Assembly (NCBI GenBank): GCA_964562705.1
Contig: CAZLUI010000004.1
Location: forward strand, 1,503 to 65,502
Direction of reading: 5' to 3'
Source: an uncultured Staphylococcaceae bacterium
GTDB taxonomy: Bacteria; Bacillota_I; Bacilli_A; RFN20; CAG-826
Length of the DNA stretch: 64,000 nucleotides
A model generated the notes under the pieces. It made no database searches and was not told the origin of the DNA. It was given only the letters and a program-made list of their open reading frames with translations. A program made the position numbers and the translations under genes. Shown here in pieces: positions 3,287 through 14,682 of this stretch; within the stretch, counting starts at the first letter, position 1, and each line of letters begins with the position of its first letter.

Positions 3287-5311
3287 TTATTTTTCATCGA
3301 CTTCTTTAACAGCACGAGCATCATTTAAATGCTCATTTAGAACATCCAGTAGTCTAGTTTCAACACGTTCGATTGTTGTGTTCTTTAGCACTCCAGCGGC
3401 TTGAGTCAAGTGACCGCCACCATTCAGTTGCTCGGCAAGCAATTGCACATTAATTGTTCCATCACTACGGCAAGAAACAGCAACATCTTTCTCACTAATT
3501 TTGCCAATTATAAAGCAGGCATTGACACCACGCATCTGCATGCATTGATTGCCAACTTTAGCAAGCGTTGCTCTTTCAATAATATCGTCTTCATCAGCAA
3601 CACAATAGACAACGCCATAATATGGAGTCTTTAGTGTTGCAATAATCTTTGTAATCAAAGTGTATTCTTCGAATTCATCTTTTAAGAAATCATCAGCGGT
3701 CGAGTTATCAGCTCCATATTCTTTTAGAATCATGGAAGCTTCAAAAGTACGAATGCCACAATTTTTTGATTTGAAGAAATTTGAATCCATGAAGATGCCC
3801 GATAGCATAATCGTAGCATAGCTAGATGGAATAATAATTCTTGGGTTAGCGGAACAATAACGGATTAGTTCTGCTACCATTTCGGAAGCCGATGAAGCGC
3901 TTGGCTCAACATAGCTAAACACTGGAGAATCAACAAATTCTTCACCACGCCTATGGTGATCAATAACCATGACTTTTGTGGCTTTATCTAGTAATTTTGG
4001 TGCCATAGTCATTGACGGTTTATGAACATCACAAACAATAATTAACGTATTGGCTTTGATAAGGTCTTGGGCATCGGAAGGAGTAACAGTTATTTTGTTC
4101 ACTTCTTCTCTAGAGAAGGATGATGTTACTGCTCCTCGGCATTTGCTTTCAGTCAATTTTGGGTCGTAAACAACAACTGAATCTTTTTTGCAATATTCAC
4201 AAATAGATTTCATACCTAAACATGAACCTAGCGAATCCATATCCATGGTTGTATGGCCCATAATAATAACATTAGACGAGTTACGAATAAGCGAAAGGAC
4301 AGAGTCCGCCATAACACGGACTTTAACTTTATTGCGATTCTCTTGGGCTTCGAATTTGCCACCGTAAAACTGCAATTCTTCCCCATATTTAGAAACAACG
4401 ACTTGGTCACCACCTCGTGACATAGCAATATCAATCGCATTTTCGGCCATCTCATTCAACTTTGTCACATCAGGAAATCCGTGTGCTAAACCGATAGATA
4501 GCGTTGGAGGCGTCCCTTCTTTTTCGCCAATATGATGAATATTCTCAATTAGAGAGAAATGATCAGCCTCCATCTTGGCTAAAGAATCATAGTTACACAA
4601 AACAAAATATGCATCATTTCGATAACGACGAATTAATACTTTATAGTTACGGACATATTCAAAAATGGCATTTCTGATTTTGGAAATGACATCATTTGTA
4701 TCGTCAGCGGTGCCGGAAATGTCAGAATAATTATCAATCATTATGATGCCGACAACCATTGCTTGCAATCTGGATTGAGTGTAAATATTTTCGTATTCAG
4801 TTTGATCTTTAAAAATAAATAATCCCGCATCGCTTAAATACTTGACATCATAGTTGCGAGAATTAACTTCTATTTTAACTACCGCCTCAGATGACATGGT
4901 TGCAAACTTTTCAAGTTTTGGTTGCCATTCAAGAATATTGGTATCCAGAATATCAATGGATCTTTGTTTAAACAGGTCGTTTGTCCAAATAACAATGTTA
5001 TTTTCATCCACAATAGCTAATCCAATCATTCCAAAGTTATAGGCTTCTTGAATATCGCCACCAATCAAATCAGCTGCGTGTAAATCGCTTGAACGTCTAA
5101 GCCTTGTCATAATAACTACACCAACCCAAGTTAAAACTAGGTTAAATACAATAAATATGCATGAAATAATATACAAGAAAGGGATTGTAATTTTTGTTTG
5201 AAATTCAAATATATTAGCAGAATAGAAAACACCAAAAATAATTGCAGTCAGTAATTCAATCGAAACAAATATCAAGAAGATTAATCGAAACGTTCTCAGG
5301 TGCTTTTTCAT
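3287..5311 (-). CDS. gdpP: c-di-AMP phosphodiesterase GdpP (YybT): two N-terminal TM helices, PAS-like region, degenerate GGDEF, DHH/DHHA1
   Basis: Hydrophobic N-terminus, DHH motif (MVIDHHRRGE), GGGH near the C-terminus, position upstream of rplI. Confidence 0.9.
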   Translation of the reverse strand: MKKHLRTFRLIFLIFVSIELLTAIIFGVFYSANIFEFQTKITIPFLYIISCIFIVFNLVLTWVGVVIMTRLRRSSDLHAADLIGGDIQEAYNFGMIGLAIVDENNIVIWTNDLFKQRSIDILDTNILEWQPKLEKFATMSSEAVVKIEVNSRNYDVKYLSDAGLFIFKDQTEYENIYTQSRLQAMVVGIIMIDNYSDISGTADDTNDVISKIRNAIFEYVRNYKVLIRRYRNDAYFVLCNYDSLAKMEADHFSLIENIHHIGEKEGTPPTLSIGLAHGFPDVTKLNEMAENAIDIAMSRGGDQVVVSKYGEELQFYGGKFEAQENRNKVKVRVMADSVLSLIRNSSNVIIMGHTTMDMDSLGSCLGMKSICEYCKKDSVVVYDPKLTESKCRGAVTSSFSREEVNKITVTPSDAQDLIKANTLIIVCDVHKPSMTMAPKLLDKATKVMVIDHHRRGEEFVDSPVFSYVEPSASSASEMVAELIRYCSANPRIIIPSSYATIMLSGIFMDSNFFKSKNCGIRTFEASMILKEYGADNSTADDFLKDEFEEYTLITKIIATLKTPYYGVVYCVADEDDIIERATLAKVGNQCMQMRGVNACFIIGKISEKDVAVSCRSDGTINVQLLAEQLNGGGHLTQAAGVLKNTTIERVETRLLDVLNEHLNDARAVKEVDEK

Positions 5312-6458: not shown

Positions 6459-8240
6459 TTAACTAGCACGGTAAAGTTGTGGAAGCAACATTGTTGGGCC
6501 TGTGGCTGATGCGTAATTAAGGAATCTTGGGGAAGAAACGTTATATAAAATTCTTCCATAGGCAGTTGTTGCACTTTGAATTGTCGCATTTCCAGTTGCT
6601 GAGTCAATTGAGATATCCCAAGAGGTATCTCCACTATCCCAGGCAGCTTTCTTAGCAGCTGTTGCACCTAATAATTTAGATGAGTATGAAAGTGTCCAAG
6701 CACCGCTTGCACCACCCAAAGTTAACGCGATAGAATCAGCACCTAAACTAGAGATTGTTGAGCCATCGGCAGCAAAGGTTGAGGCAACAGATGATAAGAA
6801 GACATTTGTGCCACTAAAGTCACCAGCTGTGAAACCGGTGTTTGAAGCGAGAACAAGGACATCGCCAACTGCTAATGTTGAAGCATCAGAAACAAGTGAA
6901 TATGTGACTGACACTGGAGCACTTAAAGCGATTGAAACTGGATCAGAAGTGACTGAACCAACTGAAACGGTGATTGATTTGGATTCACCATCAGCTTCCA
7001 CAAATGTATATGGAAGTGTAACTGAACATGTGTAATCAGCAAATGCAGCATCTTCAGCTCCGCTTGCACGGACTGCTTTGACGACTAATTCACTAGCAGT
7101 AAGGGTTTCACCATATTTCTTGGCAGTTGGTGCACTTGTAATAACAAGTGAAGCAACTGGATCAGCAGCGGCGATAACGATTGAAATTGCAGCAGAGACA
7201 ACACCATTTGCAGTTGCGGTAACAGTGACTGTTCCATCGGCAGTTGCGGTTAATACTGAACCTGCAATTGTTGCAAACTCAGAACCAGAAGCGATTTGAT
7301 ATGTAACTGCATCAGCAGCTGCTGATGGTGTTAAGTTAGCACTTAAGTTAACTGTATCGCCAACATAAACTGATGATTTATCAGCAACACATTCAACGCC
7401 TGTAGCGTGGACAGCGTGTTCTGTTGAAGAAACGATAATCATCTCATTCCAAGCAGTATCACTGCCAATGAGATAAGCTTTGACATCATAGTATTTGTCA
7501 ACGTTTTCAGCAACACCAATGGTTGAGACTGATTCACGAGCATATTTTGTTGCTTCTGAATAGTCTGTACCATCAACAAATTTTAAGTTGTAGTAGGTAC
7601 CGTTTTTGTAGACTTTAACAAGACCAGTAATCATTGTTAATCTTGATGAAGCAATACTGAATGCATCCCAGGATGCAAGTGTCATGGCTGAACCTTCTGG
7701 TACAGCGATGTGTGGGTCAGTGCCTTCGCCTGCAGCAATAACAATACCATCTTTACTGATTTGGCGGTTACCATGATAAGTTGAGGTTGTTCCAGAGACT
7801 CTGACGAAATCTCCAACTGCTTTTCCTGTATCTGTACCTTTGTAAGCGTAGATAGCGCCTGTTGCATCAGCAACAACAATACCTTTAGCAGTGACTGCTG
7901 TAACGCTTCCTTCAATGACAACTGCTTGTTCAGCTGCTAAAGCATAAACTTCTGCAATTGTTGAAACAGAAACAACTGGATCGGTACTTGAACTAGAGCT
8001 TGATTCTGAGCTGGAGCTTGAGCTTGATTCTGAACTTGAACTTGAGCTTGATTCTGAACTTGAACTAGAGCTTGATTCTGAGCTGGAGCTTGAACTTGAT
8101 TCTGAGCTGGAGCTTGAACTTGATTCTGAAGTTGTGCTTGTATCAGAACTTGATGACGAGCTGCTTGATGATGGGTTTTCACCACATCCAGTCAACGCGA
8201 GCATAACGGCTGGTAATAGAACGAATAATTTTTTATTCAT
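6459..8240 (-). CDS. surface lipoprotein with Ser-rich low-complexity repeats, a possible OB-fold region and Big_2-like Ig domains
   Basis: Signal peptide plus lipobox (LALTGC); (SSSSSSSE)x6 repeat; Big_2-like block (VYVGDTVNLSANLTPS...TVTVTATANG); noticeably GC/Ala/Thr/Ser-rich relative to its neighbours. Confidence 0.7.
   Translation of the reverse strand: MNKKLFVLLPAVMLALTGCGENPSSSSSSSSSDTSTTSESSSSSSSESSSSSSSESSSSSSSESSSSSSSESSSSSSSESSSSSSTDPVVSVSTIAEVYALAAEQAVVIEGSVTAVTAKGIVVADATGAIYAYKGTDTGKAVGDFVRVSGTTSTYHGNRQISKDGIVIAAGEGTDPHIAVPEGSAMTLASWDAFSIASSRLTMITGLVKVYKNGTYYNLKFVDGTDYSEATKYARESVSTIGVAENVDKYYDVKAYLIGSDTAWNEMIIVSSTEHAVHATGVECVADKSSVYVGDTVNLSANLTPSAAADAVTYQIASGSEFATIAGSVLTATADGTVTVTATANGVVSAAISIVIAAADPVASLVITSAPTAKKYGETLTASELVVKAVRASGAEDAAFADYTCSVTLPYTFVEADGESKSITVSVGSVTSDPVSIALSAPVSVTYSLVSDASTLAVGDVLVLASNTGFTAGDFSGTNVFLSSVASTFAADGSTISSLGADSIALTLGGASGAWTLSYSSKLLGATAAKKAAWDSGDTSWDISIDSATGNATIQSATTAYGRILYNVSSPRFLNYASATGPTMLLPQLYRAS
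7988..8135. repeat. about six tandem copies of a 24-bp unit (gattctga[ga]ct[gt]ga[ga]cttga[ag]ctt) encoding SSSSSSSE inside the lipoprotein gene
   Basis: Direct reading of the sequence; the unit periodicity matches the 8-aa protein repeat. Confidence 0.85.
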
Positions 8241-8498
8241 TATTAGTAATTCCTCCTTTTCTATTACTTATATTAAGTGGTAATGAAATCGTACGTTTTC
8301 CGTTACGCACAAAATAACGTTATAAAAATAACTTAATAAACTTATCAACATTCTTCGCAAAGCAAAATAATGTTTTCATGTACTAATATGTTAACATATT
8401 CTTCATTTGTTGCAAGAATTGAAAATTAATATGGTGACAATATGGGCATGTGTAGCCAATAGCAAACACTTCCATATAGGAGTATATTGTTTTGTATT

Positions 8499-9632
8499 AT
8501 GAGTGAAATAAAAAATAGGAATACTACTTTTTCTCTTTTATACATAGTGGGAATAGTGTTGGTTCTTTATAGACACTTTTGTCAGGGGCAAAATTTAATT
8601 TTTGAATATCTATTCATAACTAGCACGTACCTAGTTTATATTTTCTTTTTTTCGTCTGGTTATTTCTATAAAACAGACTCAGAGAGCCACCCGTTTAAGT
8701 ACATATGGCGAAAATTTTTAAAGCTAATAGTCCCTTATTTTATTGGCACAATAGCGTACGGAATAATTGGTATATTTGTTAAAGATTATTTACCAGATTA
8801 TCCAATCGCTCCTTTTACTTTTAAAACTGTAACGTACATCTCGTTAGTTAACGGCCTTCAGTTCTTTTTTAATTTAGGAGCTTGGATTTTAGTTTCTTTA
8901 TTTCTAAATGAAGTCATATATATGCTGCTTAGCAAAATATTAAAATTTAAGCATAAAGAATTGGTAATTTTTGGAGTATTTTTAGCAATTGGTATTGGAG
9001 GCTTGTACCTTTCATCGGATCCTATAAATTTTGAATGGAAATTGTTTATAGTTAGATTAATGGTTTCTTTACCATTCTACTCACTTGGTAACATCTACCG
9101 AGTATACTTAGAAAAAAATGATATCAAGATAAGCGCTTTGATAAAACTAATTACTTATATTGCTATTTTTGCAGTCGTTTCCATTTGCAACAACGGATTA
9201 CCAGTCGACTACGTTCCGTCTACCGGGAATGGTCTAACAACAAATCCAATGATTTATTATTTGTTATCTTTCGCTTCTATTCATTTCTGGCTTATTATTT
9301 GCACAAAATTATCAAAGTCCTTCGAAAATAATAAAACTGTTGATTATATAGCAAGCCATACTTTTTCAATTATGATGAACCATTTATTTGCTGTTTTTCT
9401 TTTAAAGTTGTTCTTTTATTCGATATCAGACCATCTAAATAATTTTTCAGTAGAAGCGTTTAAGGGTGACTGTTGGTATTTATATATGCCCTATGGAAAT
9501 AGAGGATTTGTAATTTTGTACATAATTTGGGCAATAGCGTTCTCACTCTTATTGTCATACCTATATTCCCTATTAAAAAAGGGGGTAATTAAATCTTTTA
9601 AAAGCATACAACATGTATTGTGTAAAAAATAA
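8499..9632 (+). CDS. polytopic membrane protein, probable acyltransferase family 3 (OatA-like)
   Basis: About 10 predicted TM helices, extremely AT-rich with F/Y/I bias; an N-terminal ...YRHF... region resembles the acyltransferase_3 start. Start is uncertain: the track uses a TTG at 8487, whereas the ATG at 8499 lies 15 nt from an AGGAG. Confidence 0.45.
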   Translation: MSEIKNRNTTFSLLYIVGIVLVLYRHFCQGQNLIFEYLFITSTYLVYIFFFSSGYFYKTDSESHPFKYIWRKFLKLIVPYFIGTIAYGIIGIFVKDYLPDYPIAPFTFKTVTYISLVNGLQFFFNLGAWILVSLFLNEVIYMLLSKILKFKHKELVIFGVFLAIGIGGLYLSSDPINFEWKLFIVRLMVSLPFYSLGNIYRVYLEKNDIKISALIKLITYIAIFAVVSICNNGLPVDYVPSTGNGLTTNPMIYYLLSFASIHFWLIICTKLSKSFENNKTVDYIASHTFSIMMNHLFAVFLLKLFFYSISDHLNNFSVEAFKGDCWYLYMPYGNRGFVILYIIWAIAFSLLLSYLYSLLKKGVIKSFKSIQHVLCKK

Positions 9633-9673
9633 AATAAAAAGCCCTGCAGTTTCCTACAGAGCTAATTAGCATT

Positions 9674-9750
9674 TATGGTTGTCTAAGGTCAGTTATTCAA
9701 TTTGGTCTAAAATTCTCCATTCACAATTATGTCGTACAACTTAGACTTCG
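9674..9750. repeat. 77-bp direct repeat, copy 1 (left boundary of the accessory island); continues into an 11-bp-stem hairpin tctccattcac/gtgaatggaga
   Basis: Identical to 12856-12932. Copy 1 alone has the right hairpin arm at 9750-9760. Confidence 0.9.
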
Positions 9751-9861
9751 TGAATGGAGACTTTTGAATCCACAAACCTTTCGCCTGTTGGGTAAAAAAG
9801 ATTTACGCAAAGCAGCAATTTAAACTGGTTTTAATGAAAGTTAATCTGATAAAATCTGTCG

Positions 9862-11151
9862 TTATTTAAATATGCTTCTAATTAATGAATATCTCGTATC
9901 ATACATTATATTCTTTAGAGCTAAATTGTTCTCGTACGAAACGGATAACAACTTGCTGACTTTATCAGACATTTCTGAAGCTGAAATACTAATTTTTCTT
10001 AGCTGGTTATTAATGGTGGAAAAACCATCATAGAGAGTAGTTTGTAATCTTTCAAGATTAATGTTTGCTTTGGTTAAGTTCAATATTACTTTTGCACGAT
10101 ATTTTTCTTCTTCAAATAAATTAATTGCTTCTTTCCAATTATCTGCTCTTCCACTTTCCAAAAGTTCGATAACAGCAGATAGTACCTCAACAGTTCTATA
10201 TTCAACAGGAACGTTAAACATTTGTTCAAATAAGATTTTTTTATCCATTAAATCTGCATAACTGTTTATCATTTCATGGAAATGTTCTTTTACATAATTA
10301 AATCGTTCTGAATGCAACTTAAAAAATGCGTCTCTTTTTTTAACAGCGTCTCTTATACATTCTGAAACTTGGTGACCGATGGGTAGAGTCGTTTTTTCTG
10401 TCACAGTTTTTGTTGCATCGCTAAAAAAACTAGCCACTAACACTCTGCGAGTTCTAGTTCGAGTAATTACAACGTCGGCAACATCGTTTGGAGCGTTTTT
10501 AATGAAGTCAAAGACATTACTGTCTCCACCAAGCAAACTATCACCAAGGTTTTTTTCATATTTGTTATCAACTGTGGACAAAGAATATGTTATCTCATCT
10601 TCGCTTCCAAAATTTTTTGCTCTGTCTTGTTCGTACGCTTCATCAAACAACTTTTCTAATCTTTTATATAATTCACCGTCATAACTAAATAACTCGTCGT
10701 AAAAGTTGTAAGGTGGCATATCGAAGAAGAATAACTTTCTTCTCATAACAGAATCCCAGTTAAGGTTAAGATCAGAAAATTCTATATTCTCTTTTAGATG
10801 AATTTGCTGATTTCTTATAAAGTCCCCATTCATATTCCAAAACTCATGGGAGTTAATTTTATATTCAGCAGGGTCATCTAAGTTTGTGTCGCACAAAAAC
10901 CAACACTCATAGCCGGTAAATGCATTGATATATTGCACCCAGTTTTTCAAAATTGAAATCAATTGACTTTTATTAACCTCTTTGGGATCGGATTTGATTT
11001 GAATTGCGTCGCTAGTTTTTTCTTCAACTTCTGTAAGAAGTTTTTTTGCTTCTTCTAGAGAATATTCCGTCCCACAATCTTGGCAAACAAAAACTCCATT
11101 TTCCTTCTTTATTGACTGACTTCCACATATTTCACAAACCATTTTTTTCAT
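9862..11151 (-). CDS. hypothetical protein with N-terminal zinc ribbon (CEICGS...CQDCGT), 429 aa; the remainder has no recognisable family
   Basis: Long clean ORF; the CxxC-x14-CxxC lies at residues 6-26; overlaps the upstream gene by 4 nt (translational coupling). Confidence 0.6.
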   Translation of the reverse strand: MKKMVCEICGSQSIKKENGVFVCQDCGTEYSLEEAKKLLTEVEEKTSDAIQIKSDPKEVNKSQLISILKNWVQYINAFTGYECWFLCDTNLDDPAEYKINSHEFWNMNGDFIRNQQIHLKENIEFSDLNLNWDSVMRRKLFFFDMPPYNFYDELFSYDGELYKRLEKLFDEAYEQDRAKNFGSEDEITYSLSTVDNKYEKNLGDSLLGGDSNVFDFIKNAPNDVADVVITRTRTRRVLVASFFSDATKTVTEKTTLPIGHQVSECIRDAVKKRDAFFKLHSERFNYVKEHFHEMINSYADLMDKKILFEQMFNVPVEYRTVEVLSAVIELLESGRADNWKEAINLFEEEKYRAKVILNLTKANINLERLQTTLYDGFSTINNQLRKISISASEMSDKVSKLLSVSYENNLALKNIMYDTRYSLIRSIFK

Positions 11152-11567
11152 CTTTCGCTTACTCCTTTCAACACTTTTGCAGTCTTTTTCTTAAAGTCGA
11201 TTGAATAGTAAAAAATATTTTTTCCTTTATTTTGAAGCAAAAACCTATTAGAAAGCATAGAAACATTGTTACTTTTGAAAACAATAATCACCGAATCATT
11301 TGACAATTGTGTTTCGGTAAAACGCCCGCATCCTATTACTTTGGACGATACACTATTAAAATGCGTTTCATATATATAATCGTTAACAAATACGATAGCC
11401 GAATTGTTTTTTCTATTTTTTAAAAAAACCGGATTACGAATATAAGAATTAATTTGAATATTGTACTTATAAAAATCATTAATTGCTTTCTCAATGCTTT
11501 CAGAAATCGCGCTTAAGTCTTCCTCGTCTACAAATAATCTTAAAAGGCATTCATTTTCGACATCCAT
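11148..11567 (-). CDS. hypothetical protein (139 aa), first gene of a two-gene operon with the zinc-ribbon protein
   Basis: ORF whose stop overlaps the start of the downstream gene; no recognisable motifs. Confidence 0.5.
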   Translation of the reverse strand: MDVENECLLRLFVDEEDLSAISESIEKAINDFYKYNIQINSYIRNPVFLKNRKNNSAIVFVNDYIYETHFNSVSSKVIGCGRFTETQLSNDSVIIVFKSNNVSMLSNRFLLQNKGKNIFYYSIDFKKKTAKVLKGVSER

Positions 11568-12197
11568 ATTTAGATTTATTTTAGTCTACTAACAAACTAA
11601 TAACAAGCACTTTAAAGCACTTAATTTATAACGATTTAGACTTAGCCCACGGACTTTTTCATATGCTTTGAGTTGTAATCTGCGAACCATTTACAAACTT
11701 AGCAATTTTAAATTGGTTAGAAAATGAGTGACCAAAAGAAACATTGTCGCCTTAACCCGTCATTAGAGTTTTTGGAGTTTTGCTTGAGTAAACACCAAAT
11801 TCGGTTTTTTTCACTAAATTCGGCATAAAGATAACTAAGCGACATTAAAAACAAGATAAATTGTAATCTTAAGTGCAACACTTCGATATAGCTTCAGACC
11901 GGTCTTTAAAAACGGGGCGCGGAATGTTAGTAAGTAAGGTATTTGTTAGGTCTATGTGATAAAGCTTGGTGGTGAGTTTGTTTGGAGCTTTAAACTGAGT
12001 TTTATGATAGCTGTGGTCTGATGTAAGTATGAAGTGAGAGCTTGTGTGTTTATATAAATATAACTTGCGGGCTGAGAGAGTATATTTTGGTGGAGTTGGG
12101 CGGGTAAGTATTAATAAGAAAGACTAAATAAAAAGTAAGTAAAATATAGTTTGTTTTTTTATAAGGGCGGGGAGAGAAGAATTAGTTAGTAAGTATT

Positions 12198-12231
12198 AAA
12201 AAAAGATCTAAGGTTAGTAGATCTTTTTTTA
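12198..12231. terminator. bidirectional intrinsic terminator (A7-agatcta-aggttag-tagatct-T7) within repeat unit 1
   Basis: Perfect 7-bp stem flanked by an A-run and a T-run. Confidence 0.7.
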
Positions 12232-12733
12232 GTTTTGTATGTAAGTATCTATGTTAATTATTGAATAGAGTTTTGTGTCTAAGTTTGAATAATTTGTTTT
12301 AGATAATTACATGACTGTCGTTGTCCAAGCTCGCCCATCCAGTTTTGTCTGAGGTCGCCCATCCATATTATGTCGTGTTTTGAGACAGTCGGGAGCGGGC
12401 GAATACGAATTATTTTTGCTGTGGGACGGAAGCTTTGCAGAAGACGTGTTTTGAGCTGCAGCCTGGTATTTGCTTAGGTATTGCGACAAAGCTTCTGTAT
12501 GGGCTTGTTTGATAGCTTAAAATGAGTCTGGTCGCAGGGTTTAAGCAAGGGCGGCAGGCTGGGCGGTTGAGGGGAGGTTTATATTAATATATAAGGTGAG
12601 GTAAGTAAGTATTATTTGTCTATATAGGATGAGAGTAAGTAAGTTGGTTGTTCTATATATATGGGAAATAAGTAAGTGAAAAGATATATATGACTAATAT
12701 TTTTTTATAGGGGCGGGGAGAGAAAGAAAGTAT

Positions 12734-12765
12734 AAAAAAGATCTATGGGTGAGATAGATCTTAAT
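12734..12765. terminator. bidirectional intrinsic terminator (A6-agatctat-gggtgag-atagatct-T-rich) within repeat unit 2
   Basis: Perfect 8-bp stem with an A-run upstream and a T-rich tract downstream. Confidence 0.65.
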
Positions 12766-12855
12766 TTGTTGTTTTGTTGTTAATAATTATCTATGTTTGT
12801 TGAATAATAATGTTTAGACTATTTTGAATGATTTGATTTAGATAATTACAATGAC

Positions 12856-12932
12856 TATGGTTGTCTAAGGTCAGTTATTCAATTTGGTCTAAAATTCTCC
12901 ATTCACAATTATGTCGTACAACTTAGACTTCG
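12856..12932. repeat. 77-bp direct repeat, copy 2 (right boundary of the island core); lacks the right hairpin arm seen in copy 1
   Basis: Identical to 9674-9750. Internally made of two ~22-bp subrepeats (ttgtctaaggtcagttattca / ttggtctaaaattctccattca). Confidence 0.9.
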
Positions 12933-12977
12933 CGAATAAGAAAAAACCAGGCTTTTACACCTGGCTAGTTTGGAATT

Positions 12978-13409
12978 TTAGAATTCTAGTTTTTTGCCTT
13001 TAAGACAATCTTCCGTGCTTGGCTCTGGTACACCACTACAACTCATTTCACTTTCTATTTCCAGAATCGGCTTGTATAGAAGATCTAATGTGTATAAGTC
13101 TTTGGCAATTGTTTCATATAGTTTTTTACGCTGCCCCACAAAACACTGACCTATTGCTTTAGCAATGTTAAGTAGAAAAGCCGATGTAATATCATGAGGA
13201 GTAGGTTCGCACCCCCAAAGCATAGATGTTTCCATGTCATAGTCATACTTCATTACTGACTGTTTAAACAACATTTCAAATCTACTATTACTTTCTTCCT
13301 TATATTCATCTTTAGTTTCTATAAGTTTATAAATAGTTGAACCTTTACCTTCTGGCCAAATACGCTCCAATTCCTTAAGCATCCATTCTTTTTTCATCCA
13401 TTCTTCCAT
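12978..13409 (-). CDS. hypothetical protein (143 aa), acidic/K-rich, no known family
   Basis: ORF with RBS aaagga about 9 nt upstream of the ATG; preceded by a conserved ~40-bp motif shared with the next gene. Confidence 0.5.
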   Translation of the reverse strand: MEEWMKKEWMLKELERIWPEGKGSTIYKLIETKDEYKEESNSRFEMLFKQSVMKYDYDMETSMLWGCEPTPHDITSAFLLNIAKAIGQCFVGQRKKLYETIAKDLYTLDLLYKPILEIESEMSCSGVPEPSTEDCLKGKKLEF

Positions 13410-13478
13410 AAATAATTTTCCTTTCTGTCATTTAAGACGCCACTATTATGTAATTTTTAGAAGTTCAAATGGTCGCTT

Positions 13479-13793
13479 CTATTGAGACAAAATATTTTCT
13501 GCATCTAATGTGAAATACAAAGTATCAATTGACTCATATTCACTACTTTCTATGGTTATTGAATTGTTACTTCTAAACCACACAATAAACTCTCTAGCTC
13601 CAATATTGAACTCGTTGATTTTTAGATCAGTAATAACAAATTTTAAAGTTGAATACCCATCCCTGTGATTAACTCTATTGGTACAAAGCACAACCGCATA
13701 GAAACCGATTTTTTCTAAGTCGCCATACCTATATTTTTTACCCGGTATAAATTTAAATTCATTCATACTTTTTTTCTCCTTTCGTGCCTCCAT
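13479..13793 (-). CDS. hypothetical protein (104 aa in the track). A better start is probably the internal MNEFKF (ATG at 13766, ~95 aa), which has aaggag 9 nt upstream.
   Basis: ORF; a strong SD precedes the internal ATG and none precedes the first ATG. Confidence 0.45.
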   Translation of the reverse strand: MEARKEKKSMNEFKFIPGKKYRYGDLEKIGFYAVVLCTNRVNHRDGYSTLKFVITDLKINEFNIGAREFIVWFRSNNSITIESSEYESIDTLYFTLDAENILSQ

Positions 13794-14017
13794 TATGAAT
13801 CTTTTGTAGTTTTAAATGGTCGCGTCCAGAGAGACAAAAAACTTACTCGCTAATAAATTGCTTACTTTAGTAACAAACGTGCGACAATGGACTCCTAAAG
13901 CAACAAAAAAGACCTGCACAGAAGCAGATCTCTTTATTAATTTTATAGCTGCCCACGCCGAATGGACGTTTTTGGCCAACTTCGGATAAGTGACTTTGGA
14001 CAACTACAGCATTCAAA

Positions 14018-14245
14018 TTAGTCTTGAATGTATGGTAGTAAACCCATGAAGCGGGCGTTTTTGATTGCTTTAGCCAGCTCTCTTTGATACTTAGCACATG
14101 TGCCAGTAGCGTGACGAGCGGCAATCTTACCGTTTGGAGTAATGAATTTGCTTAATAATTCAACATCCTTATAATCGATATGATCAATTTTATTCTTGGT
14201 AAAGTAACAAACCTTTTTGTGAGGTCTAATTTTCTTGAATCCCAT
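14018..14245 (-). CDS. rpsR: 30S ribosomal protein S18
   Basis: [41 protein letters not shown]...ARFMGLLPY. Confidence 0.95.
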
Positions 14246-14259
14246 TTTAATTTTCCTTT

Positions 14260-14682
14260 CTAGAACGGAAGGTCATCATCGGCGACATCAATAGAATCGA
14301 GATTCTTGCTATCGTCTACTGCTGGTTCATCTAGTGGAACTTCCTCATTAGGAATTTCTTTTGATTTTGGTTCAAGGAATTGAACTGAATCAGCAATTAC
14401 TTCAATGACAGAGCCTTTTGTTCCATCTCTTCTCTCGAATGTTCTTTGATGGATTCTACCATCAACACCGACGAGTGAGCCTTTGCGGCAATATTTTGCA
14501 ACGTTATCTGCTTGTTGATTCCAAACAGTAACTCCAATAAATGTAGTGGTCTTTTGGCCATTAGCATCTTTCATGCGATCATCCACTGCAATTGTGAATG
14601 AAGCAACTGGAACATCAGAAGTTGTTCTTCTTAGTTCTGGGTCGCGGGTTAGTCTACCCACGAGAATGATTCGATTAATCAT
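14260..14682 (-). CDS. ssb: single-stranded DNA-binding protein
   Basis: [20 protein letters not shown]-fold N-terminus, acidic C-terminal tail ending DDLPF. Confidence 0.95.

Follow-up and report, generated by a model that had tools for sequence, protein, structure and literature searches.

The 139-aa and 429-aa ORFs encoded on the minus strand of the window (the whole stretch of 64,000 nt that was analysed) are the distal cargo of a transposon-like insertion that carries no transposase and that some strains lack. The insertion spans 4,335 bp, begins 14 nt after the stop codon of rpsR and contains four ORFs. Four contigs of the same species (L045–L048) lack it; they join window position 14008/14013 straight to 9673 and have flanks 96–99.7% identical to the window. 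The empty site in these contigs reads TTTGAATGCTAATTAGC and was located only via an RpsR search; among contigs with the 143-aa gene no empty-site variant was found, and all of them hold the full island. A previous interpretation of this DNA, made from the letters alone (the sequence-only reading), had held that the pair does not resemble housekeeping genes and sits next to ssb, and both observations are borne out, the two genes being strain-specific mobile cargo. The features of the region are as follows.

9669–9673, minus strand: right copy of the target duplication AATGC, from the sequence and the comparison with the empty site
9674–14008, minus strand: strain-specific insertion, from the empty-site comparison
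9674–9765, plus strand: right end RE-A, TATGGTTGTCTAAGGTCAGTTATTC + AATTTGGTCTAAAATTCTCCATTCAC, then the hairpin TCTCCATTCAC/GTGAATGGAGA
9862–11151, minus strand: 429-aa gene, an ORF with family matches
11148–11567, minus strand: 139-aa ORF, coding-like in its own frame only
11162–11168, minus strand: AAAGGAG, the Shine-Dalgarno sequence of the 429-aa gene, which falls within the 3' end of the 139-aa ORF, read from the sequence
11568–12311, minus strand: left end LE3 and non-coding module of the 139/429 unit, homologous to L025 2986–3220
11578–11606, minus strand: predicted promoter TTGTTA-17-TAAAAT, from a consensus scan
12316–12850, minus strand: unit X, 535 bp, non-coding and MITE-like, with the outer end of LE2 at 12850 and a diverged right end, RE-C, at 12316
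12856–12937, plus strand: internal right-end copy RE-B, 99% identical to RE-A
12978–13793, minus strand: cargo ORFs of 143 aa (12978–13409) and 104/95 aa (13479–13793)
13958–14008, minus strand: left terminal inverted repeat LE1, TGTAGTTGTCCAAAGTCACTTATCC + GAAGTTGGCCAAAAACGTCCATTCGG, two subrepeats of ~24 nt
14009–14013, minus strand: left copy of the target duplication AATGC (gene sense), from the comparison with the empty site
14260–14682: ssb

Boundaries and units of the insertion

The terminal inverted repeats of the insertion are imperfect, are approximately 50 nt long and consist of two tandem subrepeats of ~24 nt at each end. Aligned in inverted orientation, LE1 and the right end share 76% identity over 46 nt. 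This alignment scores 45, whereas 20,000 shuffles score no higher than 30, and none of ~20,000 random genomic 51-mers reaches the score of LE1. LE1, LE2, LE3 and RE-C start with TGT, and RE-A and RE-B start with TATGG.

The island is an array of three end-bounded units. The direct repeats that the sequence-only reading saw around the pair are present at 9674–9755 and 12856–12937 (82 nt, 99% identical, no further copy in 64 kb) and are extra right-end copies, the first corresponding to RE-A and the second to RE-B, which closes the unit carrying the 104- and 143-aa ORFs. Two other identities for these repeats, integrase att sites and a family of small RNA genes with a promoter of its own, were rejected by the junction analysis that identified them as transposon right ends. 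A hairpin element of the IS200/IS605 type was rejected on account of the 5-bp duplication and the inverted ends. Rfam searches over 9600–14100, with both gathering and E-value thresholds, returned nothing credible. Unit X holds no coding frame and is flanked on both sides by GTCAT (12851–12855 and 12311–12315), which could be inherited junction sequence instead of a fresh duplication and counts for less as evidence. The LE3 module contains the hairpin AAAGATCTA..TAGATCTTT (12197–12231), the motif TCTCTCCCCGCCC and repeats of ACTTACTTA, and shows extreme G depletion. The 143-aa and 104/95-aa ORFs have no family match in Pfam, NCBIfam, PHROGs or PADLOC.

A related genus (contig L025) has an island with like ends that occupies the same position behind rpsR in matching orientation; its left end lies 10 nt after the rpsR stop codon. 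All ends in L025 start with TGT except one left end, which starts with TGC. The cargo of this sister island comprises Phd/YoeB, a GIY-YIG protein, a homologue of the 429-aa protein and HipA. Housekeeping DNA of L025 is only 75.5% identical to that of the window, whereas the end modules reach 76–84%. A further unit flanked by a 5-bp duplication (ACTGA), with termini TGTAAT...ATTACA, occupies 7980–9431 of L025. No transposase was identified in the four ORFs of the island by Pfam, NCBIfam or PHROG, nor in 11 kb of L025, so the island would be at most a non-autonomous derivative, and its mobility today and transposon class are read from the ends only. The DNA pattern of the left end does not occur in IMG/VR, and PLSDB contains no DNA of the island.

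The gene pair and the 429-aa family

The two ORFs overlap by 4 bases (ATGA) at the coordinates given by the sequence-only reading, and through this overlap the 139-aa ORF and the 429-aa gene are translationally coupled. The 139-aa ORF itself lacks a Shine-Dalgarno sequence. The promoter-like site ends 10 nt ahead of its ATG, so the predicted mRNA would be near-leaderless. The stop-codon frequency in this 36% G+C DNA is 0.069 per codon, which gives a probability of 5e-5 for 139 stop-free codons. When scored against the codon usage of the genome, the 429- and 139-aa ORFs reach +0.21 and +0.12 respectively in their own frames, while the other five frames score −0.18 to −0.83 and the adjacent 1.4-kb spacer is negative in six of six frames. 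The improbable stop-free length and a positive codon score in the own frame only argue that neither is a chance ORF, and both are predicted to be real genes.

The 139-aa protein is an ORFan unique to this strain; a search of 5.8 billion clusters returned only the protein itself. It has no match in Pfam, NCBIfam, PHROGs, PADLOC or toxin-antitoxin models, and AlphaFold2, run on the single sequence, gave no usable model (pLDDT 44). The absence of homologues and this poor model, together with the missing Shine-Dalgarno sequence and a coding score that is the lowest among the local genes (mean 0.35), speak for a non-functional gene: a decayed or fortuitous frame, at most a translated leader that feeds ribosomes to the 429-aa gene. 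The available copies are all 99.99–100% identical, so no selection on the ORF is measurable. Against this explanation stand the chance probability of the open frame, the positive score restricted to that frame, the exact ATGA overlap and a promoter-like site suited to a leaderless start, and we regard it as doubtful. The sequence-only reading had taken an absence of homologues as a sign of a spurious ORF; the 139-aa protein has none, yet its frame is coding-like, and the 429-aa protein has homologues in ~100 clusters.

The N-terminus of the 429-aa protein (MKKMVCEICGS...VFVCQDCGT) carries the CxxC pair of a zinc ribbon as the sequence-only reading proposed, although the spacing is CxxC-x13-CxxC and not x14. 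AlphaFold2 (mean pLDDT 83.8) predicts the following layout.

aa 1–41: C4 zinc ribbon
aa 42–58: disordered linker
aa 61–180: helical domain
aa 186–255: alpha/beta domain
aa 259–333: helices bearing the motif LPxKYR...GRADxWKEAINL
aa 339–417: single long helix

The statement that the protein has no recognisable catalytic domain also stands, with only sub-threshold zinc-ribbon matches in Pfam, NCBIfam, PHROGs and PADLOC; the same four collections gave only zinc-ribbon and coiled-coil noise across 48 family members. The Foldseek comparison that had been suggested provided no match to PDB or BFVD at E<0.1, and a PDB sequence-profile search found designed and viral coiled coils only. PADLOC-DB v2 holds no defence model for the protein, the sole match being a chance zinc-ribbon similarity to Cas12f (E = 0.08).

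The 429-aa protein is a member of a small uncharacterised family. One search gave 88 matches, with 104 cluster representatives at E<1e-30, and the family amounts to ~100 clusters at 50% identity. As defined here, its members are ~390–470 aa long and share an N-terminal C4 zinc ribbon, a K..L..W helix, the motif LPxKYR-x14-GRADxWKEAxNLY and a long C-terminal helix (~80 residues), and the window protein shows every one of these features. Matches to the family profile span positions 1–408; a search with the 68-residue motif profile by itself gave two fragments. Members come from rumen and gut MAGs of uncultured Bacilli/Mollicutes-type bacteria, in host DNA of 26 to 53% G+C, and no member was found in IMG/VR, among INPHARED phages or among PLSDB plasmids. 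Literature searches returned no description of it.

Mean pairwise identity within the family is 0.78 in the zinc ribbon, 0.42 in the motif and 0.12–0.24 elsewhere; the helical and alpha/beta core diverges fast. The zinc ribbon is under strong protein-level purifying selection, its codon positions 1+2 showing 83% identity and its third positions 46%; DNA-level recombination or gene conversion was rejected as the source of this conservation by the low identity of third positions. In a full-length alignment of the window protein with 47 homologues, C6, C9, C23, C26, W71, P315 and a few others are invariant, and Y318, G334 and A336 are near-invariant and all present in the window protein. No conserved acid/His/Ser constellation is found in the family alignment and no enzyme-typical residues are kept; nothing that is conserved suggests an enzymatic function for the effector-like body of the sequence-only reading.

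Possible roles of the gene pair

The upstream gene is different at every locus holding a 429-aa homologue, and several homologues are solitary. A conserved two-gene system was rejected because the partners are unrelated across loci: the operon of the sequence-only reading survives as a translationally coupled pair in the window, and homologues are not always paired. At two other homologue loci the upstream partner is a GIY-YIG nuclease-like protein; in L009 the GIY-YIG gene and the family gene share 4 bp, and Phd lies close by. Elsewhere the neighbours are GmrSD and a restriction-modification-like gene (L008), a SecB-like protein matching PADLOC PD-T4-9_C with an MqsA-like HTH gene and a DUF2971/PDC-S31 protein (L007), or DUF3800, Macro and a nucleotidyltransferase (L024). 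Toxin-antitoxin or defence genes accompany homologues at about half of the loci, and at approximately 5 of 13 loci (L010 and L029–L031 among them) the family gene is solitary with no such gene nearby. The proposed defence or toxin module retains its mobile, strain-specific setting and part of its neighbourhood, but neither a PADLOC match nor a presence in phage, plasmid or viral collections.

A defence or conflict role of the 429-aa protein is plausible given the mobile cargo, the small uncharacterised family and the strain-unique partner. Our tentatively preferred reading is that of a transposon-borne accessory conflict gene encoding a non-enzymatic oligomeric sensor or adaptor with an exchangeable small partner. 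As transposon cargo, the two genes would serve in anti-phage or anti-mobile-element defence, or in addiction to the element. The long C-terminal helix may oligomerise the protein, the variable core may recognise a variable cue, and the invariant zinc ribbon on its disordered tether may dock on a conserved target, either cellular or a nucleic acid. A lineage-specific, exchangeable partner would be supplied by the small upstream gene. A near-invariant ribbon on highly divergent proteins itself points to a conserved cellular docking target. If this is a conflict system, it adds a protein for defence or addiction that shows neither an enzymatic signature nor a known fold, from never-cultured bacteria that are poorly covered by defence catalogues.

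It is also conceivable, though unlikely, that the 429-aa protein is an ordinary accessory host protein, a membrane- or envelope-associated scaffold or regulator that acts outside conflict and was acquired as cargo. In 15 of 112 members (~13%) there are 1–2 transmembrane helices, with a transmembrane hairpin in place of the alpha/beta part, other variants carry C-terminal Sel1 repeats or a different type of zinc ribbon, a sister clade is headed by PF13240, and the same ribbon heads LRR, TPR-like and multi-transmembrane proteins. The lack of conserved catalytic residues agrees with such a role, as do several homologues that lie alone among metabolic genes or next to GGDEF or transporter genes. 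The gene is, however, strain-polymorphic and transposon-borne in the window, roughly every second context includes a toxin-antitoxin or defence gene, and extreme core divergence beside an invariant ribbon is more typical of conflict proteins.

That the pair, or the 429-aa protein by itself, is a toxin-antitoxin-like stabiliser of the transposase-less island with no anti-phage role is quite improbable. Overlapping genes are the typical toxin-antitoxin layout, the sister island of L025 is packed with Phd/YoeB and HipA, and other homologues lie near Phd or, as in L007, near an MqsA-like gene beside a SecB-like gene. Neither protein has a toxin or antitoxin domain in Pfam, NCBIfam or PADLOC, however, and the pair does not qualify as a type II toxin-antitoxin system; known antitoxins and small toxins do not resemble a 429-aa protein with a coiled coil, conservation does not extend to the partner, and many of the homologues stand alone.

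TnsD/TniQ also feature an N-terminal zinc finger. A TniQ/TnsD-like DNA-binding target selector or regulator of an rpsR-targeting element would fit this shared feature, the position of the 429-aa gene beside the right end and the homologue in the L025 island at the same site, but it is very improbable: the 429-aa protein has no match to TniQ (PF06527) or another transposition-related Pfam family at E<=1 and no detectable HTH or other DNA-binding domain, most homologues sit in loci without these ends, and units in L025 as well as unit X do without the protein. TniQ is also not among the 25 families listed of the 98 matched when 48 members were scanned at E<=0.1.

Comparison with known zinc-ribbon proteins and mobile elements

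The zinc ribbon resembles the C4 ribbons of TFIIB/TFS/Rrn7/A2L (PF08271, PF11781, PF08792) and Prok-RING_1 (PF14446) in its CxxC-x13-CxxC spacing and the beta-hairpin between the knuckles. Between 36 and 45 of 48 family members match these models weakly, and some homologues pass the Pfam threshold, such as P0114 (34.5 bits with the TFIIB/Rrn7-type model); P0176, which has only the zinc ribbon in common with the family, scores 50.6 bits. The window protein remains below the gathering score of each model (17–18 bits versus 27–29; for the TFIIB/Rrn7-type models PF11781 and PF08271, 17.2 versus 27.1 and 14.7 versus 29), and the 390 residues after its ribbon are unlike any of those proteins. The MqsA antitoxin has an N-terminal C4 zinc ribbon and belongs to an overlapping two-gene module on mobile DNA. 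The 429-aa protein shares this arrangement, but it is three times larger, has no HTH and no MqsA_antitoxin Pfam match, and ends in a coiled coil.

The island is similar to integrons and CALINs in its head-to-tail series of small, mostly promoter-poor cassettes, its repeated hairpin-holding boundaries and a cargo of toxin-antitoxin genes and unknown small ORFs. In integrons, IntI recombines cassettes at attC sites, imperfect palindromes with a GTTRRRY core, and leaves no target duplication. The island is instead bounded by inverted-repeat ends and shows a 5-bp duplication; no GTTRRRY core was found at the junctions and no intI or other integrase in the island, and an integron gene cassette was rejected on these grounds. 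The boundary sequence is moreover 76–84% conserved between genera, whereas attC sites conserve structure and not sequence. Terminal inverted repeats with a target duplication, the missing transposase and the 535-bp non-coding unit X recall MITEs or other non-autonomous derivatives. The other island units differ from these in holding two genes each, and the copies all lie in one array at one site, with none elsewhere in 64 kb.

Tn7, Tn5053 and Tn552-type elements combine subterminal inverted-repeat arrays, safe-site insertion and defence-rich cargo (PMC8649781). The island resembles Tn7/Tn5053 (Tn402)/Tn552, of the TnsB/TniA DDE family, in the tandem inverted subterminal repeats of ~20–24 nt at each end. 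The termini of this class are 5'-TG...CA-3'; the ends here start T[G/A]T, with TATGG at RE-A and RE-B. It further shares with Tn7-type elements the 5-bp target duplication (AATGC in the island, ACTGA in the L025 unit), an orientation-specific insertion a few bases past the end of a conserved essential gene in two genera, the tandem stacking of units and a cargo rich in toxin-antitoxin or defence-type genes. It differs in having no tnsA, tnsB, tnsC or tnsD/tniQ in the island or in 11 kb of L025, in its tiny units (0.5–2.6 kb) with only two repeats per end, in its attachment site, rpsR, and in a right end that reads TATGG and not TGT. No paper naming both Tn7-like elements and an attachment site at rpsR came up in a full-text literature search, and literature searches returned no description of rpsR as an attachment site either.

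A bolder combination of these observations, which we consider improbable as a whole, is that the 429-aa protein is a new non-enzymatic immune sensor with an unseen fold that uses its partners, for example GIY-YIG nucleases, as effectors, and that it is spread among uncultured gut and rumen Bacilli by undescribed transposase-less Tn7-type mini-elements that are directed to the rpsR terminator and assemble cassette arrays there. Independently of any conflict role, the locus serves as a clean natural example, in which the empty site, the target duplication and both ends are visible. Small cargo-only units with Tn7/Tn552-style ends pile up behind an essential ribosomal-protein gene, an arrangement that would amount to cassette-array trading of accessory genes without an integron.

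A mobile island carrying the gene pair

The gene pair is cargo of a transposon-like insertion (the island) that follows rpsR and is polymorphic among strains. The two overlapping ORFs and the direct repeats around them were already seen in the sequence-only reading; the ORF coordinates agree, and the codon usage of both ORFs is coding-like.

Features of the island (window coordinates)
9674-12311: unit with a non-coding module and the 139/429 pair
12316-12850: unit of 535 bp, non-coding and MITE-like, with island-type left and right ends and GTCAT on both sides
12856-14008: unit whose cargo is the 104/95-aa and 143-aa ORFs
9674-9755 and 12856-12937: 82-nt direct repeat, 99% identical, unique to this locus
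9862-11151, minus strand: 429-aa ORF with a C4 zinc ribbon at its start
11148-11567, minus strand: 139-aa ORF, sharing ATGA with the 429-aa ORF (4-bp overlap)
~11611-11628, minus strand: tandem 8-mers AAGTGCTT-TA-AAGTGCTT

Four contigs of the same species, recovered by looking up contigs that encode an identical RpsR protein, lack the island; their flanks are 96-99.7% identical to the window, and a convergent acyltransferase gene lies 45 nt after rpsR. The empty site reads TTTGAATGCTAATTAGC, and the window reads TTTGAATGC/TGTAGTTGTCC... at the left junction and ...GACAACCATA/AATGC/TAATTAGC at the right. The junctions are exact, with 4,335 bp inserted (9674-14008) and a 5-bp duplication, AATGC. 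The left terminus (TGTAGTTGTCCAAAGTCACTTATCC GAAGTTGGCCAAAAACGTCCATTC) and the right terminus (TATGGTTGTCTAAGGTCAGTTATTC AATTTGGTCTAAAATTCTCCATTC) are imperfect inverted repeats with 76% identity across 46 nt, each composed of two ~24-nt subrepeats. Their alignment score of 45 compares with a shuffle maximum of 30 (n=20,000) and was matched by 0 of ~20,000 random genomic 51-mers. Of the two 82-nt repeats, one is the right end itself (RE-A) and the other duplicates it internally (RE-B); one more copy, RE-C, is diverged and begins at 12316. Left-end copies (TGTAATTATCTAAA...) adjoin RE-B and RE-C, which makes the island a three-unit array. The MITE-like unit fits exactly between the two units with cargo. 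Outside the island, a gene at 6459-8240 encodes a Ser-rich lipoprotein and contains repeats with a 12-nt period (8 copies in 8000-8158); strains differ in its length, with 593 aa in the window, 597 aa in L045 and 589 aa in L046, two of the contigs that lack the island.

The contig L025 belongs to a related genus (LysS protein 81% identical, housekeeping DNA 75.5% identical). It has a left end 10 nt past the rpsR stop codon and two more at 7980 and 9440, while right ends terminating ...ATTACA lie at 4105 and 9431; ACTGA flanks the unit 7980-9431. Its cargo consists of Phd/YoeB, a GIY-YIG protein, a homologue of the 429-aa protein (P0023), a small ORF with HipA and then an HTH protein. Judged by these ends, the element family of the island is evidently present at the same rpsR site in a second genus.

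The 104/95-aa ORF (13479-13793) and the 143-aa ORF (12978-13409) are additional cargo for which no annotation is possible. For the former, Met10 is the likelier start, in view of an AAAGGAG 8 nt ahead of it, and would shorten the protein to 95 aa; the gene calls on several contigs agree. Terminator-like hairpins occur at 9640-9663, 12945-12966 and 13906-13935, and every unit carries or abuts its own. The module behind each left end is non-coding, is composed of a hairpin (AGATCTA..TAGATCT) with a T-run followed by TCTCTCCCCRCCC, and is 76-84% identical between the two genera. The AGATCT-containing hairpins would block read-through from rpsR into the cargo. Two tracts with plus-strand GC skews of +0.72 (11901-12300) and +0.74 (12501-12850) have no counterpart elsewhere in the 64 kb. 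They are G-poor on the gene-sense strand, carry TCTCTCCCCGCCC behind a terminator-like hairpin and contain ACTTAC(T)TA, a three-frame stop on the opposite strand, at least 8 times. The homologous tract of L025 (2951-3200) has the same skew, and an Rfam search of the skewed tracts gave no match.

Coding quality and the partner gene

Both ORFs look coding, and by codon usage and composition the genes are real. Scored against the genome's own usage, the 429-aa ORF reaches +0.21 and the 139-aa ORF +0.12 (core genes mean +0.35), each positive in its own frame only, and all six frames of the neighbouring 1.4-kb spacer are negative. The chance of an open frame of 139 codons at local composition is P = 5e-5. 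The AAAGGAG ribosome-binding site of the 429-aa gene sits within the 3' part of the 139-aa ORF, and no site of this kind precedes the 139-aa start. A promoter-like TTGTTA-17-TAAAAT ends 10 nt ahead of the 139-aa ATG, so this mRNA would be nearly leaderless. The tandem 8-mers directly upstream of this promoter-like site may be an operator. A related AAATTAAGT motif is found in L025 ahead of the GIY-YIG gene (4110-4140) and inside another cassette (8111-8163), where the HTH gene follows ~330 nt later.

The 139-aa partner is an ORFan that matched only itself in the protein-cluster search, and its single-sequence structure model was unusable. The copies of the locus available for comparison are 99.99-100% identical, too alike for selection on this protein to be measured. 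The 139-aa ORF might alternatively be non-functional, a reading that would fit an ORFan and that has the frame-specific codon usage against it.

The view of the pair as a conserved operon did not survive comparison, as the upstream neighbour varies at each of 12 other loci. It is a GIY-YIG protein in L009 (4-bp overlap) and L025, elsewhere DUF3800, GmrSD, transmembrane proteins or tiny ORFs, and at another locus a metabolic gene at an ordinary intergenic distance. In pairwise BLAST the upstream genes were unrelated, save that the GIY-YIG genes of L009 and L025 matched weakly; the 139/429 operon is thus local and not a conserved system. In L009, an imperfect ~290-nt direct repeat (5018-5243 and 7298-7524, 43-nt core at 98%), unlike the rpsR-island repeats, flanks the translationally coupled GIY-YIG gene and family member, with a Phd antitoxin gene next. 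These repeats look like a second, unrelated type of cassette boundary, and the bracketing again suggests cassette-like carriage.

The zinc-ribbon protein family

The 429-aa protein belongs to a real, small and uncharacterised family. Among 5.8 billion protein clusters it had 88 matches, nearly all of 390-470 aa, unnamed and without Pfam domains. When a profile was run exhaustively against 1.84 billion representatives, 104 passed E<1e-30, most of them over their full length. Where a source is named, it is a rumen or gut MAG assigned to Bacilli, Mollicutes or Bacillales. The G+C content of host DNA spans 26 to 53%, and the family was not found in IMG/VR, INPHARED or PLSDB.

The predicted C4 ribbon is present at the N-terminus (MKKMVCEICGSQSIKKENGVFVCQDCGT). 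Conservation along the family is very uneven, with mean pairwise identity of 0.78 in the zinc ribbon, 0.42 in the LPxKYR...DGRADxWKEAxNLY motif, 0.24 in the C-terminal helix, 0.18 in the N-terminal helical domain, 0.14 in the linker and 0.12 in the middle alpha/beta domain. In the ribbon, identity is 83% at codon positions 1 and 2 and drops to 46% at position 3, so its conservation reflects selection at the protein level; the same third positions rule out DNA recombination as the cause. The invariant residues are the four Cys, S11, K16, F21, G27, Y30, W71, P315 and a few hydrophobics, and no catalytic-like constellation was seen among them. Searches of the protein and 48 members against Pfam, NCBIfam, PHROGs and PADLOC returned only sub-threshold zinc-ribbon matches, in agreement with the earlier view that no catalytic domain is recognisable.

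The AlphaFold2 model, built from a 48-sequence alignment, is confident (pLDDT 83.8, pTM 0.64) and predicts the zinc ribbon on a disordered tether (46-54), then a helical region and an alpha/beta unit of four strands, and last a helical bundle and a 79-residue helix. Foldseek against PDB and BFVD, a check that had been proposed, gave nothing below E = 0.1, and a PDB profile search gave coiled coils only. On this model the family is unplaced, with a fold that is confidently predicted yet unmatched.

One or two transmembrane helices replace the alpha/beta middle in 15 of the 112 full-length members, and two members carry Sel1 repeats at the C-terminus. In a sister clade the body is retained but the ribbon is of the PF13240 type, and the TFIIB-like ribbon of the family is also N-terminal on LRR_5, TPR-like and multi-transmembrane proteins. 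Another contig (L006, 79-3304) encodes a tandem of two paralogues (435 and 429 aa) with a 192-aa ORF between them, whose R-x4-H motif is possibly HEPN-like.

Possible role and relation to known transposons

The suggested defence or toxin function stands in part, through mobile carriage and through the toxin-antitoxin or defence genes that lie near roughly half of the homologues, but no known defence model (PADLOC) matched the pair. From the carriage and the neighbours we infer that the 429-aa protein may be a non-enzymatic sensor or adaptor in genetic conflict. Its invariant ribbon would be a docking module attached to a hypervariable core, and the long C-terminal helix probably serves oligomerisation; these features and the lack of catalytic residues point the same way. 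Against a conflict role, several family loci have ordinary gene surroundings. The toxin-antitoxin neighbours could also fit an addiction module. An ordinary membrane or scaffold protein would suit the members with transmembrane helices. Transposition accessory machinery is a further alternative. Domain searches of the island's ORFs found none that is transposase- or integrase-like. The interest of the locus lies more in its mobile-element architecture and in the unplaced family with its unmatched fold than in a demonstrated role in defence.

Elements of the Tn7, Tn5053 and Tn552 type are marked by arrays of subterminal repeats, termini reading T[G/A]T, a 5-bp duplication and insertion in a fixed orientation immediately behind a conserved gene, and defence genes are abundant in their cargo (PMC8649781). 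Unlike these elements, the island has no transposase and is therefore classed only as a non-autonomous element with Tn7/Tn5053/Tn552-style ends. Its ends start T[G/A]T, with TATGG at RE-A and RE-B, and it resembles these elements in its subterminal repeats, its 5-bp duplication and its orientation-specific site after a conserved gene.
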